Part shown: positions 1 through 13,232 of the stretch, one piece after another
How the letters are laid out: each line of letters opens with the position of its first letter
Position numbering within the stretch: position 1 is the stretch's first letter
From: Chamaesiphon sp.
GTDB taxonomy: Bacteria; Cyanobacteriota; Cyanobacteriia; Cyanobacteriales; Chamaesiphonaceae
Direction of reading: 5' to 3'
Length of the DNA: 64,000 nt
Assembly: GCA_965246715.1 (NCBI GenBank)
Contig: CBDFFH010000015.1
Span: 224,001-288,000, forward strand
Program-made: the position numbers and the translations under genes
Notes under the pieces: generated by a model
What the model was told of the DNA's origin: nothing
Databases searched by the model: none
Seen by the model: the letters and a program-made list of their open reading frames with translations, nothing else

Positions 1-243
1 AGGATCGATGGTTAAGCTATTACGACCCGATATACCGATCAGATCGCTAGTTAATTCCTTCAATCTTGATAATACTTTTGGTAACAGTACCTGTTGCGAT
101 CCAACAGGGGCTGTTGACCAGATTGATTCAAGGACAGCATTTCTAGATAAAGCTCGCGACAGTACCATGATATATTTTCTCTCGATCTGATAGTTGAGAT
201 CGCAAGCCTCTTTCATCTGGCTTTTGCTTAGCGACGCTCGCAT
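1..243 (-). CDS. partial hypothetical protein running off the window start
   Basis: Minus-strand frame open from ATG at 243 (or 216) to position 1: MRASLSKSQMKEACDLNYQIERKYIMVLSRALSRNAVLESIWSTAPVGSQQ...; no family recognised. Confidence 0.35.
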   Translation of the reverse strand, partial: MRASLSKSQMKEACDLNYQIERKYIMVLSRALSRNAVLESIWSTAPVGSQQVLLPKVLSRLKELTSDLIGISGRNSLTIDP

Positions 244-679
244 AAAAACATGGTGACGATCGAACGTACGAGATGTTTCCAATTGGCTCAACTAATGTCA
301 AAGAATTATTTAGCTTGATATTAGTAAATATTAGGCGATCGATTTCTAACTTAAATCAGCAAATTATCTCAACTAAAGTATGTACAAATAGCTTAGGCTA
401 TATATTCGATCCTAGTGCGAGTCAGAGCATCGCCAAGTTTATATTCGCGATCGGTTGGAGTCTCAGCAAGAGCTATCTGGCAAAATTCTACCGTAATAAG
501 CCGATTGAAATCACTCGCTACAAACCCGATTCATAGTTTTAAGATATCATAAAATTTGCCTAGTCGCGCTAGTAATTAGGCAATCAAATGCGATCGACTA
601 GATTGAAATCTCCTGAAGCTTAAGCAATATTCTAGTTATTTAATAGCTATTTCATAGTGGACTACAAGGCTCGGCACTT

Positions 680-1639
680 TTATTTCAATTTGTTGATGAT
701 ACTTATTGCCATTTTAGGTGTTGTTAATTTAGGAACTTTAGCCAAGATCGCGGATTCCCAGGTCTCAAATCTTTGCTGAGGTTGAGTATCGCGCTTATCG
801 ATAATATTCATGGCTAATGTCTCTGCACTGACTATTCCTGACTTTGCCATGCACAGAGTCAGATCGCCGAGATTTAACGTGTTAATTAAATTTAGGGTTC
901 TCGCCAATTTTTCGGGGTCTACAGCTCCGAAGGCATCGGACTTGACTCGATCTTTTGGAGGAGTAGTAGTGGGTGCGGTCTTTTTCGCTGTTGTTGCCTT
1001 CTTGCGCGTCGAGGCTGGTGGTGGTAACTCAATGCTGTTGACCGCTGATGTTAACTGCTGGGGTTGAACTTCTAACTTTTCTGGCTTCTTCTCGGCTTTA
1101 GGATTAACTGTGCGACGAGGCTTTAAGATTGCTAAAATCTGTTTGTGTCGATCGAGTTCGAGGCTAACGGTATCGAGCTGTTGTTGTATCGGTTGCACCT
1201 GTTGCGAGATTTCAGCTCTAAGCTGTAAAGCCAATCGATCGAACAAATCGTGCGGTGACACAGCAGCAGTATCAGCGGTTATCTTCGCAATCGGTAGATC
1301 GATCTTCGTCGGAGTGGATATTATCTGCGATTTAGTTTGCGATAATATTGTCAGTTGAGCGAGTGCAACCTGCCGAACATCCTCGGGAATTATAAAAGCA
1401 TTAACTGTTTCTGCTTTCCGTGAATCTTTTTCTTTAGCTCTGACTGCTGCATAATACTCTAAATCTCCCTGAAGAATACTATATCGATCTACAGATGTTT
1501 GCGTGAGGATCAGCGGACGAATCAATCCGCCAGTTGCTAAAATTAAATCTGCCAATCGTTCGATTTCTGAATCATCAAACTCAGAAATCGATATCTCCGA
1601 GCTAATATTTATAATATCTACAAACAAACATTTAATCAT
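680..1639 (-). CDS. ParB/Srx N-terminal-domain-like protein with coiled coil, Lys/Thr/Pro-rich linker and possible C-terminal HhH-like domain
   Basis: IERLADLILATGGLIRPLIL...YSILQGDLEYYAA resembles the ParBc fold; lies directly downstream of a ParA gene. Confidence 0.7.
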   Translation of the reverse strand: MIKCLFVDIINISSEISISEFDDSEIERLADLILATGGLIRPLILTQTSVDRYSILQGDLEYYAAVRAKEKDSRKAETVNAFIIPEDVRQVALAQLTILSQTKSQIISTPTKIDLPIAKITADTAAVSPHDLFDRLALQLRAEISQQVQPIQQQLDTVSLELDRHKQILAILKPRRTVNPKAEKKPEKLEVQPQQLTSAVNSIELPPPASTRKKATTAKKTAPTTTPPKDRVKSDAFGAVDPEKLARTLNLINTLNLGDLTLCMAKSGIVSAETLAMNIIDKRDTQPQQRFETWESAILAKVPKLTTPKMAISIINKLK

Positions 1640-1666
1640 TGGTGTAAATTATTTTTACAGGTTAAT

Positions 1667-3037
1667 CTATTTCTTTAAACCCATCTTGCTTAACACTTCA
1701 TCTGCCAGAACTTCAAATTCCATTGCGGATATTTGAGCGGTACTTTTGACTTCATCGGCATATTTGAAAATTGATTTAGGATCTGGATATTCTAATCCAC
1801 CGACGATGACAGTTTTATTAAAAGATTCGGATAATGCCGTGCGATCGTAAATTACTGACTCCATAAGCGGCATTCCATATCGTCGGCTGATTACTTCTCG
1901 CTGCTTGGGAAAAGTATACTCGAGATATCGAGCATTAGTAGATATTTTAGATGCCAATACGCCCAACAGTTCGATCGGTTTTCTGCCAAATGAATAGCGG
2001 TTTTCATTAATGCTTCTAATAAACTCCTTGACTGTTGGCAAACCCTGATTTGCAAATGGTTTGAGATCGGAGGGGATTAACAAATAGTCAGCAGTAATTA
2101 GCGCGATTTCCGCATAAATATCGCGTGAAGGAGGAGTATCGATAATTACTAGATCGTAATCATTTTCGACTTGCTTGAGTTTAGCAATCAATCTAGTACG
2201 ACTGGAGACTTTTGTTGTCAATTCGCCTTGATTGACGATCAGATTAATATGTGCTGGAATTACTCCAATTTCTGGATCGCTAAAATACTCTGACACGCGC
2301 ACGATTTCGGAGATCGAGCCAGTCTCTGCACTAGCAATCAAATTATAAACATTCCGCTCGCGTAGATCGTCATCTTCCTCAAATTCAAACTTGACTAACC
2401 CGGTTGCAAAGGTACTATTTGCCTGAGCATCGATATCGATGAGTAACACTCGATAACCTTTTATACTAAAAGCTGCAGCTAGATTGGTAGAAACTGTAGT
2501 TTTACCGACTCCGCCTTTATTGTGATAGATAGCAATAGTTTTCATAGATGATGCGCTAGGAGCTAAAGGTTGTGTGCGAACAGCTGCGGTTTTAATCGAT
2601 AATAGTTGAGATTGTAAACGATCGCGTCCGATTAATTCGATCATCTCGGGCAATCGATCTTCGATATCTCTACCCTTGCAATTAAATACCAGTTCGATCG
2701 AACCTAGCGAGTGTTGATAAATTCTTAATTCCTTGCCATTGGTTAACAAGCCGTAACAAATATTCAAGCTGGTTAAATAACGACGGATTTGATGAACGTG
2801 ATTGTCGAGATTCTTGCGAGGATGCTTGGCTTCAATTATCAGTCCCAATGGCGATTTGACATCTAATTTAAAAGGTCGAGCTTCGGTAAAAACTAAAAAG
2901 TCAAGTCGAATACTCCCAAAAGTTACCTCTTGATGCCAAGTCTCAGGAGCATATCCTAGTTTTGGGAGTAAATATCGCACGATTAGCTTACTTTCAACTT
3001 CGCTCTCGTTCCGACACAGCTCGGGATTGAACTTCAA
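1667..3037 (-). CDS. ParA/Soj-family ATPase fused to an N-terminal HsdR_N-like PD-(D/E)xK nuclease domain
   Basis: N-term ESEVESKLI..LGY..QEV..RLDFLVF..IIEAKHP..QIRRY..LLTNGKELRIY; C-term deviant Walker A NKGGVGKTT, LLIDIDAQAN, IIDTPP; TTG start. Confidence 0.88.
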   Translation of the reverse strand: MKFNPELCRNESEVESKLIVRYLLPKLGYAPETWHQEVTFGSIRLDFLVFTEARPFKLDVKSPLGLIIEAKHPRKNLDNHVHQIRRYLTSLNICYGLLTNGKELRIYQHSLGSIELVFNCKGRDIEDRLPEMIELIGRDRLQSQLLSIKTAAVRTQPLAPSASSMKTIAIYHNKGGVGKTTVSTNLAAAFSIKGYRVLLIDIDAQANSTFATGLVKFEFEEDDDLRERNVYNLIASAETGSISEIVRVSEYFSDPEIGVIPAHINLIVNQGELTTKVSSRTRLIAKLKQVENDYDLVIIDTPPSRDIYAEIALITADYLLIPSDLKPFANQGLPTVKEFIRSINENRYSFGRKPIELLGVLASKISTNARYLEYTFPKQREVISRRYGMPLMESVIYDRTALSESFNKTVIVGGLEYPDPKSIFKYADEVKSTAQISAMEFEVLADEVLSKMGLKK

Positions 3038-3234
3038 GATCGACCTCTAACTTTAGTACTGAAAATATCATAGATAACGAATCTATACTAGGTAAAATTT
3101 TGCTCTGAGTGGTGAATAGTTTGGCGATCGCTTGACATTTACCTGCAATACAATTAATTCCAGAAAATTTGACGCACCAATTTTACCAGATAAAAATAAT
3201 TAACTGAAAATCGACCATCTCGATCGATTAGAGA

Positions 3235-3474
3235 TTAACGTGTAATACCTCTAATCATATATCCCATCACCAATCCAACAGCTAAAGCGCCAGCTTTTCC
3301 AGTTTGGAGAAAGTCCGTCCAACCATTTTGAATATTGGCCATCAGATCCACATTTTGCATCTGTTGTGCTAAAACTAAGCCATGAGTAGTAACATCAAAG
3401 TGCAAGGCTAAATCGGTGCCGATTACTGTCACTGAGGGCAAACCGTGCGTCATCGCGAAGATGGTTAGTTGCAT
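3235..3474 (-). CDS. small conserved membrane protein
   Basis: 79 aa; C-terminal hydrophobic GALAVGLVMGYMIRG typical of small cyanobacterial membrane proteins. Confidence 0.6.
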   Translation of the reverse strand: MQLTIFAMTHGLPSVTVIGTDLALHFDVTTHGLVLAQQMQNVDLMANIQNGWTDFLQTGKAGALAVGLVMGYMIRGITR

Positions 3475-3552
3475 AAATAAATCTCAATTATGATGATAAT
3501 TATGCTTATTATGCCCGTGCGCGATCTCGAATCGATCGAGTCGCTGCTAATG

Positions 3553-4890
3553 TTATTTAGGTACAACAGCAAAATTGCGTTCCGGATCGCCAAAATAGGC
3601 TGGCTGTCGATCGTGTTTGGTGACAACTAACGGTACTGGTGTAACTCGACCCCAGGCTTGCAGCAACGATTGGAGCAATGTATCCTGCTGTTGGCGCAGT
3701 TTGGGAATTTGCGAGCCTTTATTGACGATTACAAACCAAACTAACCCGCGATTGGCAGTTGGTAGTACCCCCGCTAGAGCACTCACCTCATTGAGCGTAC
3801 CTGTTTTGATCGTCGCGCCCACTGGTAACTGTCGGTCTTTGAGCGTGCCGATCTGTTCTGCGCCAGCTACGGGAAAGATATCTGCTAAGTTGAGATTTGC
3901 CGCTTGCAGCGTCTGGTGCAGGGTGCGAAAAATCTGACTGACGGCACGGGGAGAGATCCGATTTTGGACTCCCAAGCCAGAACCATTAATTAATTGAATC
4001 TCTGCTGGTGGAAAGTTGGCGGTAGTCGCGACGATATTCATCACCCGATCGGCTCCACCGACACCATCTGCTAAAATTTGAGCGATTTCGTTATTACTAT
4101 AGATATTCATCTGCCGCACGATATCGACTAGCGGCAAGGAGCGATGGCGGATCAAGGGTATGCTGTTGGGCGGTGGCGCGATTGAGATAATTACTTTGCC
4201 GCTGATTGGCGCTTGTGGCAGCTTTGTTGGATCGGTTGTTGGTGCTGTTGGCAGCTTGACGATATTGACATCTTTAAAGTCGGTTTTGAGCAGTGCTGGT
4301 GGCAGATTTATCCCCGTTAAGGCTTTCTTGAGCAATTCTCCAGCTTTTTGCGGATCTGCTTGATAGTTCATGTGGAAGTTACCGACGACGATTAGATTCC
4401 CGCTAATCCGATTTATTCCTAATTTATTCAAACTTTGCGCTAACGCGATCGCATCTTCCCAGACGAATAACGGATCGCCGCCCCCACGAACGATCAAATT
4501 GCCGACTAATACTCCCTGTTCGATCTTGCCGTCAGTGCCGATTTCAGTATCGAATGTTTTATCCAGTCCCCACTTGGTAATTGCGGCCAGCGAAGTGGCT
4601 GTTTTGGTCAGGGAGGCTACCGGAACGGGAATCGTACTGTTGCGATCGATTAACACGTTACCATCGGTACGCAGCCAAACTGCTTGCTGTTTGGGATCTA
4701 ACCCTTGTGCTTTGAGCGTCAGCAGATAGCGATCGATTATTTGTTGCACTCCTGGCTCTACTGGCGTAGGTGGCGTGAGCCAGGATAATCCTTGCCAAGT
4801 GATGGCTTGAGCTGGAGACGCTACCTGCGGATTAACTCCCGCTAGATTTAACCACATTCCCACGAATCCAGACGAAACTAATTGCAACAT
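3553..4890 (-). CDS. dacB: D-alanyl-D-alanine carboxypeptidase/endopeptidase (peptidase S13, PBP4)
   Basis: SxxK (ASLTK), SNN, NGSGL and KTGTL motifs. Confidence 0.9.
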   Translation of the reverse strand: MLQLVSSGFVGMWLNLAGVNPQVASPAQAITWQGLSWLTPPTPVEPGVQQIIDRYLLTLKAQGLDPKQQAVWLRTDGNVLIDRNSTIPVPVASLTKTATSLAAITKWGLDKTFDTEIGTDGKIEQGVLVGNLIVRGGGDPLFVWEDAIALAQSLNKLGINRISGNLIVVGNFHMNYQADPQKAGELLKKALTGINLPPALLKTDFKDVNIVKLPTAPTTDPTKLPQAPISGKVIISIAPPPNSIPLIRHRSLPLVDIVRQMNIYSNNEIAQILADGVGGADRVMNIVATTANFPPAEIQLINGSGLGVQNRISPRAVSQIFRTLHQTLQAANLNLADIFPVAGAEQIGTLKDRQLPVGATIKTGTLNEVSALAGVLPTANRGLVWFVIVNKGSQIPKLRQQQDTLLQSLLQAWGRVTPVPLVVTKHDRQPAYFGDPERNFAVVPK

Positions 4891-7142: not shown

Positions 7143-7476
7143 TTATAAATATCGAAATCATCAAATCGATCCGATCGAACTGTTGATTGGGACGATCTTA
7201 GCTATATATGTCGATCCCGTTCCGGTCATTTGGGATATTCGGTACCGTAGAGTAGTATTTTAGCCCCTGGATGGGAGCATCGGCATCACCTAATCTTGTC
7301 AAGTAGATAAAGTGCCAAAGCGACTGCTATTTAAAGAGTGCTCTTTTCTCGATTTGAGTGTTTACCCTTTATCGCGATCGGCCGATGTACTACTAGTCAC
7401 AAATCTTAATGGAAATTCTCATCAAATTATCCTAAGCTATCCAAATAGTGGGTATTTAATATTCGGAAATTTTAAT

Positions 7477-8193
7477 ATGAGTTCTAATTTAGCTACTAAA
7501 CTCCGCGAAGGTACCAAAAAGTCTCACAGTATGGCTGAGAGCACGGGCTTCATTGCCTGTTTCCTCAAAGGTACCGTCGAGAAAAAATCCTACCGTAAGC
7601 TCGTAACAAACCTTTACTTCGTCTACTCGGCGATGGAAGAGGAAATGCACAAACACGCTCACGACCCGATTTTATCACGAGTCTTTTTCCCCGAACTCGA
7701 TCGCAAAGCTGCACTAGAGCAAGACTTAGCTTTTTATTATGGTGCCAACTGGCGCGAGCAAGTAGCACCTTCTGAGGCTACAAAGAAATATATCGCGCGC
7801 ATTCATGAAGTTGCCAATAGCGACCCCGCACTGATGGTCGCACACCTTTATACTCGCTACTTGGGCGACCTCTCCGGCGGTCAAATCCTCAAGAAAATCG
7901 CTCAGAACGCGATGAACCTCACTGATGGTGAAGGAACTGCTTTCTATGAGTTCGAGCAAATCCCTGATGAGAAGGTATTTAAAAACAATTACCGTCAAAT
8001 CATGAATGACTTACCCATCGACGAAGCTAAAGCTGATGAAGTCGTTGATGAAGCCAATGCTGCTTTTGATATGAACATGACCATGTTCAATGAATTAGAA
8101 GGTAATCTGATTAAAGCCATCGGCATTCAATTATTTAATCTCTTGACTCGCAAACGCAACCGCAACGAATCCGAACTAGCCACTGCGGAATAG
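7477..8193 (+). CDS. ho1: heme oxygenase 1 (biliverdin-producing, ferredoxin-dependent)
   Basis: MSSNLATKLREGTKKSHSMAE, HLYTRYLGDLSGGQILK; start moved to ATG 7477. Confidence 0.95.
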   Translation: MSSNLATKLREGTKKSHSMAESTGFIACFLKGTVEKKSYRKLVTNLYFVYSAMEEEMHKHAHDPILSRVFFPELDRKAALEQDLAFYYGANWREQVAPSEATKKYIARIHEVANSDPALMVAHLYTRYLGDLSGGQILKKIAQNAMNLTDGEGTAFYEFEQIPDEKVFKNNYRQIMNDLPIDEAKADEVVDEANAAFDMNMTMFNELEGNLIKAIGIQLFNLLTRKRNRNESELATAE

Positions 8194-10562: not shown

Positions 10563-12296
10563 ATGTTTTTAGTAGGGATTATTGTCTGTTTTGGATGGCT
10601 ATTTTCTCTATGTCTACATGAATTTAGCCATGCAATCTGTGCCTACTGGGGTGGAGATACCTCCGTCAAGCAAAAAGGATATCTAACATTCAATCCGCTA
10701 AAATACACCGATCCTGGACATAGTCTCATTCTACCAGTCTTATTTTTGTTGATGGGTGGGATTGGATTGCCTGGAGGTGCTGTATATATCAACCAGCATA
10801 AGTTACGAAATCGATGGTGGCAGAGCGCTGTTTCTGCCGCAGGGCCAATAGCTAATATTTCGATCGCGCTAGCATTAGCCATCCCCTTTTGGGTCGTCCC
10901 CACACAGAATTTAGAATCGATCGATGGCGAATCATTCTTAGCTAGTGGCATAGCTTTTCTAATTTATTTACAAGTTTTTGCGGCAATATTCAATTTATTA
11001 CCGATTCCTGGTTTAGATGGTTATGGTATCTTTGAGCCTTGGTTGTCTAAGCGTATTCAAGCTAAATTTAATTATTTTAGGAAATATAGCACTTTAATTA
11101 TTATTGGTTTATTCTGGTATGCACCTGGGTTTAGTGATTTTGTCTTTACAATTGTCGTAATTATCACTAACTTACTACACGTTCCCCGCGATTTAGTCAT
11201 TGTCGGTTCCGAGCTATTTCGCCAGCCAATCAATAAAGCGATCGTTATCGCAGTTTTATTAATTATTGGTTGGGGATTGAATTCTTCCAAGAATACTTGG
11301 AATCTAATTCAAACAGGTAATAGCTTAATTAAAAAAGGAGATTACCATTCGGCGATCGATTGGTTGGATCGAGCGATCGATCGCGAACCGAGTACAGAAG
11401 AAGCTTGGACACAGAAAGCCTACTGTTTATGGTGCCTCGGTTTCAAAGACCGGGCTATTGCTTGCTATCAAAAAGCATTGATGATTAATGAGCATAATGA
11501 ATACGCGCAAAAAAGTCTCGGTCATCTTTTGTTCGAGATCTCAGAATATCGATCGGCTATTCCATACCTTGAAAAAATGCTCGAATTAGAGCCAGATCGG
11601 ATCGAAAACTATTATTATCTGGGAACGTCTTGGCAGAACTTACAGGAATATATACTAGCAGATGAAATTTTTGGTAGAGCGATCGAGATCGAACCATCGT
11701 CTGGACAAGAGAATGATTGGTGGTATAAAGCAATTTGTTTGGAACAGCTCAATTTACATGAGAGAGCCATTACTTGCTATCAACAAGTTTTAAAAATAAA
11801 TGAAAACAATAATGACGTTCGAATGCAAATCGGCATTATTTATTTTAATTTAAGTCAATATGAATCGGCGATTGACAATTTAGAAGAAGCGATCGAGCTA
11901 AACGATAGCGATCTTAATGCTTATTATTATCTAGGATTGTCATATCGTCGGTTAGAAAATCTCGGCTCATCAAGTGCAGCTTTCGATCGAGCATTATCTT
12001 TAAAACCTGAATCATCAACTGTCTTACATGCTTATGGTGAGTTACTGCATCATTTTCAAGATTACAAAGCGGCGATCTTAAAATATCAAACATTAGTAGA
12101 TCTTGCCCCCAATGATGCAACTGCTTGGTACGATCTAGCTTGTTGCCAATCGTTGAATGGCAATATCGATCTAGCAATTTCTGCTCTGCAAAAAGCAATA
12201 GAAATCGACCCCGATGACTTAAAGAAATCTGCTCTAACCGATCCAGATTTTAGCTTGATTCGACAAGATGTAGCCTTTGAAAATCTAACTGCTTAG
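10563..12296 (+). CDS. site-2 protease (M50) fused to TPR repeats
   Basis: HEFSH, AGP, NLLPIPGLDG; about 9 C-terminal TPRs. Confidence 0.9.
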   Translation: MFLVGIIVCFGWLFSLCLHEFSHAICAYWGGDTSVKQKGYLTFNPLKYTDPGHSLILPVLFLLMGGIGLPGGAVYINQHKLRNRWWQSAVSAAGPIANISIALALAIPFWVVPTQNLESIDGESFLASGIAFLIYLQVFAAIFNLLPIPGLDGYGIFEPWLSKRIQAKFNYFRKYSTLIIIGLFWYAPGFSDFVFTIVVIITNLLHVPRDLVIVGSELFRQPINKAIVIAVLLIIGWGLNSSKNTWNLIQTGNSLIKKGDYHSAIDWLDRAIDREPSTEEAWTQKAYCLWCLGFKDRAIACYQKALMINEHNEYAQKSLGHLLFEISEYRSAIPYLEKMLELEPDRIENYYYLGTSWQNLQEYILADEIFGRAIEIEPSSGQENDWWYKAICLEQLNLHERAITCYQQVLKINENNNDVRMQIGIIYFNLSQYESAIDNLEEAIELNDSDLNAYYYLGLSYRRLENLGSSSAAFDRALSLKPESSTVLHAYGELLHHFQDYKAAILKYQTLVDLAPNDATAWYDLACCQSLNGNIDLAISALQKAIEIDPDDLKKSALTDPDFSLIRQDVAFENLTA

Positions 12297-12482: not shown

Positions 12483-13232
12483 CTAAAACTCTCTATTGGC
12501 AGTAGTACCGATGCCTGCGACCGCAGTTTCTGGAAAATCGATGGGAACCGTTTCTAGTGCGGGAATTTGTTCGAGCTTGGTCAATGTATTGACCGAAAAT
12601 AGACCGAAGCCAACTTTAGAAACGATATCCAGGATCGTATAAAACATACTCTCAAAGCCACTACTCAACACCCCAAACCCCGTACCTGCCAAAATCCACA
12701 CTACTGGGTAAACCGTCCACACGGAAATGTGCAACGCAAGCAAGCGATTGAAGGCACTTTTACCGACCTTACCTGGGTGGTTTTGCATGGCCTCATTTCG
12801 GTATCTACCTACCAATAAAACTGTTACGCCGATATAAAAACCACAGCTTACTAAGTACCAGACATAGTTAATCGTTGGGGGTGAAATAGTTGCTAAGAAA
12901 CCAGTGGCAATCATCGCAGCATTGGCACCGATTAGCGAGCCTGCTGTTGACACTTGAATCCGTCCTAAGTGCGATAGCACCAATAGTAATAATGGGGTAG
13001 AGAGAAACCAAGTGATATACCGCACCCAGAAAGTCTCGTTCCCATAAAAAATGCCCTTACCTTGGCCCATTAACATCGCGAGATATAATACCGACGCGAT
13101 CGTGGTGATAAAAAAGTTTAAAGTATATAAAATCCGCCAGCGTTCGTTTGGCGCACGGTGAGCACCACTTCCAAACACGATCGCTCCTGCGGCCATACTT
13201 ATCAATCCGATCCACAGCCAAGTTTGAGTCAC
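12483..13232 (-). CDS. microbial rhodopsin, cyanobacterial halorhodopsin (CyHR) type, TSV motif
   Basis: 7 TM; helix C RYITWFLSTPLLLLV; helix G LDIVSKVGFG with the retinal Lys; N-terminus MTQTWLWIG..NERWRILYTLNFFI resembles Mastigocladopsis MrHR. Confidence 0.9.
   Translation of the reverse strand: MTQTWLWIGLISMAAGAIVFGSGAHRAPNERWRILYTLNFFITTIASVLYLAMLMGQGKGIFYGNETFWVRYITWFLSTPLLLLVLSHLGRIQVSTAGSLIGANAAMIATGFLATISPPTINYVWYLVSCGFYIGVTVLLVGRYRNEAMQNHPGKVGKSAFNRLLALHISVWTVYPVVWILAGTGFGVLSSGFESMFYTILDIVSKVGFGLFSVNTLTKLEQIPALETVPIDFPETAVAGIGTTANREF

Follow-up and report, generated by a model that had tools for sequence, protein, structure and literature searches.

A nuclease-ParA fusion and its ParB-like partner in Chamaesiphon: a member of the predicted effector-ParAB system, with a relative of the partner domain in a virion protein of Anabaena phage A-4(L)

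Results

We analysed a 64,000-nucleotide stretch of a Chamaesiphon sp. genome (GenBank assembly GCA_965246715.1, contig CBDFFH010000015.1, positions 224,001 to 288,000 of the forward strand; hereafter the window), in which two co-oriented genes on the minus strand coded for a restriction endonuclease (REase)-ParA fusion and a ParB-like partner. Judged by sequence, this pair is a member of the effector-ParAB system (ConB1 clade) that Li, Burroughs, and Aravind predicted by computation (bioRxiv 10.64898/2026.10.19.760177), and not an undescribed system. A role in defence in some form, anti-phage or anti-plasmid, is likely, because the catalytic residues were intact, effectors were swapped, copies were patchy and some were broken, the module alternated with a second predicted defence cassette, a phage virion carried a copy of the partner domain, and Li et al. 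classed the architecture as an immune system in the main text of their preprint. The initial annotation of this DNA had proposed defence rather than partition; the effector swaps, broken copies, and phage copy spoke for that proposal, but the system had already been described, and its role is predicted only. The phage copy, the alternation with an FtsK cassette, and a nuclease-helicase effector are new relative to the main text of the preprint, in which Anabaena, ejection proteins, and FtsK each gave 0 hits; its supplements could hold them.

Relatives of the pair fell into four divergent types (A to D), and the window pair was type A. Its features, in window coordinates, were as follows.

1667..3037, minus strand: REase-ParA fusion gene, type A; 456 amino acids, TTG start; predicted local distance difference test score of the model, 86.6
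2603..3037, minus strand: HsdR_N-type PD-(D/E)xK head, residues ~1-145, with E11, D46, E69, K71, and Y87 (Pfam and invariance)
1670..2545, minus strand: ParA ATPase domain, residues 165-456 (Pfam and fold match to ParA/Soj)
2495-2518, minus strand: deviant Walker A; the other ParA landmarks were DxDxQ at residues 201-205, Walker B D300, and basic K364 and R399
680..1639, minus strand: ParB-like partner gene, 319 amino acids, beginning 27 nucleotides past the ParA stop
1325..1639, minus strand: ParB/Srx-fold domain, residues 1-105, the part with a copy in phage A-4(L) gp27
1445-1468, minus strand: GDLEYYAA in place of the GxxR box (alignment with Noc/ParB)
1124..1255, minus strand: long helix in the model, residues 129-172, likely a coiled coil through which the partner would dimerise
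683..946, minus strand: (HhH)2-type helical domain (HhH, helix-hairpin-helix), residues 232-319, predicted to bind DNA non-specifically (fold matches)

The nuclease-ParA protein and its partner

The head of the fusion matched Pfam HSDR_N_2 (residues 17-109, 29.4 bits, cut-off 25), and the ATPase matched AAA_31 (residues 165-346, E 8e-51). The head motifs were located at residues 44-47 (RLDF), 69-71 (EAK), 83-87 (QIRRY), and 98-101 (LTNG), and the deviant Walker A motif, HNKGGVGKTT, at residues 172-181. Residue conservation was counted over 234 aligned type A/B relatives, which were not dereplicated. D46, E69, K71, Y87, K174, K179, D201, D203, and D300 were kept in all 234, as were V177 of Walker A and Q205, the glutamine after DxD; E11 was kept in 232, and N173, the leading asparagine, in 211. 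R399, which we take to be the equivalent of the Soj DNA-binding arginine, was present in 222 relatives. The catalytic sites of the nuclease and the ATPase, as read from this alignment, are intact and invariant. These results upheld the nuclease-ParA fusion, the intact Walker A, and the HsdR_N-type domain of the initial annotation, along with its LD/EAK and LTNG motifs; the glutamine of its QxxxY motif did not hold, since residue 83 was Q in only 140 relatives, R in 86, and K in 8. Sequence matches of the head in the Protein Data Bank (PDB) were weak (BpuSI, E 0.07; a type I R subunit, E 0.39), and the Foldseek matches for the whole model were taken up by the ParA domain, which superimposed on ParA/Soj structures and also had McdA among its fold matches. 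The nearest named relatives of the fusion were Chamaesiphon proteins with 73-78% identity.

The partner scored 24.5 bits with Pfam ParB_N, slightly below the cut-off of 26.3, and the model of its N-domain had the ParB/Srx fold (KorB, Z 11.4, root mean square deviation [rmsd] 2.6, 91 aligned; PadC, Z 11.2). As the initial annotation had noticed, GDLEYYAA (residues 58-65) stood where Noc/ParB proteins have their arginine patch, aligning to GERRWRA. The coiled coil and HhH-like tail of that annotation were also recovered. The C-terminal helical domain resembled TEFM-N (Z 10.6, rmsd 2.0, 78 aligned) and ComEA (Z 6.2), the KIF22 C-domain was also among its fold matches, and the tails of relatives matched HHH_3/HHH_6. 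The order in the protein was N-domain, coiled coil, disordered linker, and HhH domain, with no helix-turn-helix (HTH) and no N-terminal ParA-stimulating arm. Tails of the HhH and Rho_N kinds bind DNA non-specifically. The ParB domain is predicted to be enzymatically inactive. The loss of the arginines fits the earlier suggestion of a partner that acts independently of cytidine triphosphate (CTP), but such independence would go beyond the alignment, and the main text of bioRxiv 10.64898/2026.10.19.760177 allows that an inactive ParB domain may yet bind nucleotide.

Phage A-4(L) gp27 contains a relative of the partner domain

The top PDB match of the partner profile was no ParB: it was chain 9k3a_B (E 4e-9), the gp27 protein from Anabaena phage A-4(L). 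According to the text of Hou et al. (PMC12002296), five copies of gp27 form the outer layer of the pre-ejectosome and contact the first circle of packaged DNA. Residues ~1322-1406 of gp27 scored 40.3 bits with the type A partner profile, 8.5 bits with the type C profile, and nothing with the type B profile; shuffled controls gave at most 0.9 bits (300 shuffles, best among the 100 reported). When the window partner model was compared with viral structures, the gp27 domain was the top match, ahead of all phage ParBs, with an rmsd of 1.6 over 91 columns. The best matches of the domain in 18 whole genomes of one genus were type A partners (43% identity), and its identity to one host partner was 40% over 88 residues, with 35% over 63 residues for the window partner. 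A type A stretch read AREADPRK.E.VN in gp27 and AREKNPRQ.E.VN in the hosts.

We considered whether the domain was a generic phage ParB and rejected this identity, as it had no Pfam match and no other PDB match, and the 40 bits were to type A only. The link between ParB and A-4(L) gp27 was absent from the literature searched, including the main text and supplement text of PMC12002296, where ParB had 0 hits. Pattern searches of IMG/VR, which catch close relatives only, found no type A relative beyond A-4(L) itself. Directly behind the ParB-like domain, at residues ~1418-1500, gp27 (L111:4044-9197) contained a stretch of the form LYHGT...GxGxYF that had no Pfam match and that we take to resemble the ADP-ribosyltransferase core of polyvalent proteins. 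Type A partner-like domains were also seen at the C terminus of unrelated proteins (L096:7207-7824 and L097:7549-8592) on small contigs without a nuclease-ParA, and these are possibly further captures by mobile elements.

Alternation with an FtsK cassette

In a Nostocaceae-like family, here called f6, the module shared a chromosomal slot with an unrelated cassette. (Named Nostoc, Anabaena, Nodularia, Calothrix, and Fischerella records had type A.) The slot, which lay between the gene for a 294-amino-acid ParA and glycosyltransferase genes, was occupied by type A, by type B, or by a cassette of three genes, which coded for a winged HTH protein, an Orc/CDC6-like AAA ATPase, and an exonuclease-PD-(D/E)xK-FtsK protein. 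The 294-amino-acid ParA (L032:5283-6164 and relatives) anchored the slot and, unlike the module with its broken copies, was intact in all 15 f6 genomes checked, with 79-90% identity, and the cassette occupied the slot in 13 of the 15 f6 genomes that lacked types A and B. Module loci retained N- or C-terminal FtsK remnants, and the ends of these remnants differed, which argues for repeated replacement.

Module and cassette were counted in 115 genomes, a non-random set that was enriched for carriers and in which kin were not independent. Type A/B only was found in 62 genomes, the cassette only in 29, both in 2, and neither in 22; 7 genomes had no type at all. Exactly one of A/B or the cassette was present in 34 of the 36 f6 genomes. 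In one whole genus of 18 genomes, 11 had A/B, 7 had the cassette, and none had both or neither; all 7 cassettes were at the slot, and 2 of the 5 module loci checked were elsewhere. Types C and D showed no such exclusion with A/B. The cassette was not found in the window's own genome.

Types, spread, and decay of the family

We sampled 301 genomes of the phylum, using head cut-offs that were set above the weaker matches to unrelated HsdR_N proteins. The module head was present in 83 genomes, with some copies broken; 64 had a type A/B head, 47 had a type C/D head, and 28 had both. In 166 genomes from ten further families, there were 3 matches to A/B heads and 0 to C/D heads. The partner was present in 40 of 41 loci, which had been selected by a match to either gene. 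In trees of the head, ATPase, and partner (the first two being quick trees), types A and B were single groups in all three, type C in two, and type D in none. Because the three trees each grouped by type, the head, ATPase, and partner appeared to travel as cognate sets, and the head was not constant across types; A and B heads, which were 24-33% identical, clustered by type.

The effector end of the module varied. A RloB/AbiLii domain was added ahead of the module in P0167, and in two type A ParA proteins (L070:6513-9707 and L060:6777-9974) the HsdR_N head was replaced by a DUF559-like nuclease and a superfamily 1 helicase, an effector that resembled Mokosh MkoA. The L060 protein lay behind a frameshifted type B module. 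Four loci (L063, L068, L069, and L098) had headless ParA and partner pairs; at one of these, a gene for a PhoD-like phosphatase (L069:9942-11366) stood immediately before the headless type A ParA, and PhoD-like domains are named among the effectors in the main text of bioRxiv 10.64898/2026.10.19.760177. The head itself was joined to a NACHT-type NTPase in 7 proteins; the scan took 23 proteins out of the 150 highest-ranking representatives, and 13 of those scanned were long relatives of the head without ParA. At the other end, the partner tail alternated between HhH and Rho_N among relatives. A second partner, of type B and with a Rho_N tail, lay behind the type A pair in all 11 genomes of genus g3 (for example, L036:11272-12363 and L050:6684-7781); these second partners were one lineage, and genome G195 also had an orphan partner. 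Type C was found on 3 plasmids and in Leptospira species, and the search for a type A head on plasmids gave only distant HsdR_N/methylase matches.

Broken copies were found at L060, L065, L100, L203, and L204, in G297, and in the window's own genome, with short frames at contig ends left uncounted. The own second copy was type D (C15:179050-181980, or L209:9052-11979) and lay ~43 kb before the window; its head was split by a 266-amino-acid transposase-like open reading frame (ORF), presumably IS5-like, and a 178-amino-acid partner was next to it. A highly divergent module (L192:8321-10692, in the 1.7-Mb genome G241) was alone in matching type C/D within its family, of which 14 genomes were covered, and lay, by eye, within a few kb of an integrase-like ORF.

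The locus and its surroundings

The GC content of the locus was 41.0%, compared to 45.8% for the genome (8th percentile of 2568 equal windows), and thus the AT-richness reported in the initial annotation was real but mild. An imported island was considered and rejected, given that GC was low only mildly and that HIP1 octamers numbered 0 against ~1 expected. The initial annotation had seen no methyltransferase, HsdS, or obvious parS nearby, and the scans agreed within their scope. No DNA methyltransferase or HsdS was found in the 19 flanking ORFs scanned (~13 kb on each side, short ORFs left out); the sole methyltransferase was PrmA, a ribosomal-protein enzyme, 3 of the 19 ORFs had no match, and the genes flanking the pair were mostly housekeeping genes. 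The genome contained 0 matches with two or fewer mismatches to a 16-bp parS consensus, a search that a divergent site would escape, and at 3 mismatches there were 3 sites in the genome and 0 in the window. No repeat array or centromere was found in window positions 1-3600, and a promoter and terminator scan of the locus was at chance level.

Elsewhere in the window were genes for a heme oxygenase (7312-8193), an M50-TPR protein (10563-12296), and a bacteriorhodopsin-like protein (12483-13232; Pfam Bac_rhodopsin, E 5e-49). In the same genome, a ParA gene adjoined the sole ParB_N gene above the cut-off (C20:56204-57543; open frame of 419 amino acids), and the two probably form a partition pair, of the plasmid type or another.

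Discussion

Within a defence role, we tentatively favour a partner that acts as a brake on the ParA-nuclease, which we regard as possible though short of probable. As ParA biochemistry suggests, ATP-bound ParA would dimerise, coat DNA non-specifically, and bring pairs of nuclease heads onto the DNA. The partner would be a coiled-coil dimer held on the host nucleoid by its HhH tail, and its ParB fold would contact the cognate ParA and keep it off the DNA or silent. On invader DNA not yet covered by the partner, or upon loss of the partner during infection, the ParA-nuclease would accumulate and cut, and either the invader would be cleared or the cell would be killed. The brake is favoured because the phage fastens the partner domain to DNA of its own: A-4(L) would counter the module by means of the partner-domain copy in gp27, the protein that holds the packaged DNA at its first turn. 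A fuller version, in which A-4(L) captured the domain from a host type A partner and the five copies enter with the DNA and inhibit or decoy the ParA-nuclease, is doubtful.

Several findings weigh against defence or against the brake and the phage capture. The initial annotation had named defence-island enrichment around homologs as a check, and such islands were not seen: 139 neighbours/cluster representatives from 40 loci were mostly housekeeping, which indicates that the setting is not a classical defence island. Scattered among them were Uma2, XisH/I, DUF433/DUF5615, and one AAA_21 pair; no defence island was seen around the 40 loci, for which no control neighbourhoods were scanned, and a methyltransferase or specificity unit was not recurrent. 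The same annotation had held that homologs at fixed core loci with a partition phenotype would speak against it, and half of this was observed, in that relatives were often at a fixed slot among housekeeping genes. PADLOC and NCBIfam had no model above cut-off for the pair, and the PADLOC gap is unhelpful to a defence role, as is the 47-80% identity of type A across families, which reflects slower change than in many defence genes. The exclusion between module and cassette was not absolute, given the 2 genomes with both, and the two stood side by side at L168; neighbouring accession numbers suggest that some Nostoc assemblies may also have both. As to the brake, L195 had an intact type C nuclease-ParA without an adjacent partner, and in G059 the partner was split and the nuclease-ParA intact. 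As to the capture, the gp27 domain was found in one phage only, and its place in the tree, among type A, had a long branch and weak support (81/79), with a canonical ParB in the same open fork, so that the tree alone does not settle the question of a generic phage ParB.

In section 15 of bioRxiv 10.64898/2026.10.19.760177, Li et al. proposed that the partner is a sensor and recruiter that recognises invader DNA through its variable tail, clamps it, and recruits ParA, which we judge to be somewhat unlikely here. We are equally reserved about the remainder of this model, in which ParA forms a static polymer over the invader and the nuclease is a cell-killing back-up; the gp27 domain would then be a decoy. 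The headless pairs, which indicate that the core can persist without the nuclease, and the tolerated nuclease-ParA proteins without an intact adjacent partner (L195 and G059) favour recruitment over a brake, and tails switch between HhH and Rho_N, as a sensor might. However, type A has E-Y-Y in place of the triphosphate-binding arginines, which makes a CTP-closed clamp doubtful; the tails are non-specific and offer no obvious cue for self and non-self, and a phage with the domain fixed on its genome would be in danger of drawing the nuclease.

Roles outside defence were also weighed. Polyploid cyanobacteria might use either the ParAB-derived module or the FtsK cassette for chromosomes caught at division, and the two might interchange because both do the same job (move, resolve, or cut). 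Both cassettes are segregation-derived and carry a PD-(D/E)xK nuclease, exactly one was present in 18/18 genomes of one genus and in 34/36 of f6, the slot is fixed and has housekeeping neighbours, and the part of a review consulted (PMC7766704) holds classical ParABS to be absent from cyanobacteria. We nevertheless find this housekeeping role quite unlikely, and the shared job equally so: 22 of the 115 genomes had neither A/B nor cassette and 7 had no type; broken copies, RloB and helicase-nuclease swaps, and copies on plasmids, in Leptospira, and in a phage are unexpected for a core function; and exchange at one slot with differing FtsK breakpoints can produce complementarity without a shared function. 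The two-gene layout of nuclease and regulator, the repeated displacement of the other cassette, and the plasmid-borne type C would also suit a selfish addiction module, in which the nuclease-ATPase is stable and the partner labile, so that cells die upon losing the cassette and gain no protection from invaders. The numerous losses and broken copies, the lack of an adjoining mobility gene at most copies, and the little cause that a phage has to copy the partner of a harmless module make addiction highly improbable.

This architecture, which many cyanobacteria share, carries the annotation 'chromosome partitioning', and its defence role is a prediction that the phage copy and the either/or cassette relatives, as natural plus/minus strains, make testable. 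If defence is correct, a partition machine has been rewired as a restriction switch without DNA methylation, which would bear on cyanophage host range and on the resistance of many cyanobacteria to transformation. If the phage domain is a mimic, the virion would deliver an imitation of an immune regulator with a ParB fold; the structure of this virion has been solved, and the phage and its host are a tractable pair. A shared housekeeping job, if true, would bear on chromosome handling at division in polyploid cyanobacteria.

Comparison with known systems

The fold of the partner N-domain was best matched by KorB and PadC, and McdA of McdAB was among the fold matches of ParA. In contrast to the window pair, none of these systems has a nuclease; KorB and PadC bind CTP, and McdB lacks a ParB fold. 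Chromosomal ParABS (Soj/Spo0J/parS) shares with the pair the ParA fold and motifs, including the deviant Walker A and basic residues, the parA-parB order, and the ParB/Srx N-domain. The pair differs in having a nuclease head and no fixed position across families, and in lacking the GxxR (GxxRxxA) box, the ENxxR box, the HTH, and the LGRGL-type N-terminal arm, a ParB motif given in the portion of PMC12704722 consulted. It is not canonical ParABS because the GxxR box and HTH are lacking. The nuclease family and catalytic motifs are shared with type I HsdR, type IIG enzymes (BpuSI), and HsdR_N-NACHT proteins, but the pair has no helicase motor, methyltransferase, or specificity subunit, and its NTPase is a ParA; because a methyltransferase is lacking, it is not a type I or IIG restriction-modification system.

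The cassette at the f6 slot has an architecture that, by sequence, fits the HerA/FtsK systems with an Orc/CDC6 ATPase for which Rakesh et al. described counter-invader capture in the text available (PMC10853773). The module resembles these capture systems as a segregation machine turned to a predicted counter-invader use and occupies the same f6 slot, but its proteins are unrelated, and the cassette is an alternative occupant rather than a homologue. The closest likeness is to the effector-ParAB system. The main text of the preprint describes an operon of an effector-ParA and an inactive ParB, with REase as the commonest effector and RloB also among them, a tail of the HhH or Rho-N kind where the HTH would be, and enrichment in cyanobacteria; it proposes that invader DNA is clamped, with the effector as a back-up. 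The window pair has the operon order, the N-terminal REase, the predicted inactive ParB domain, and the tail of this system, together with its ConB1/PriB1 motifs: the Walker A valine, the PriB1 asparagine, and the DxDxQ glutamine are all present.

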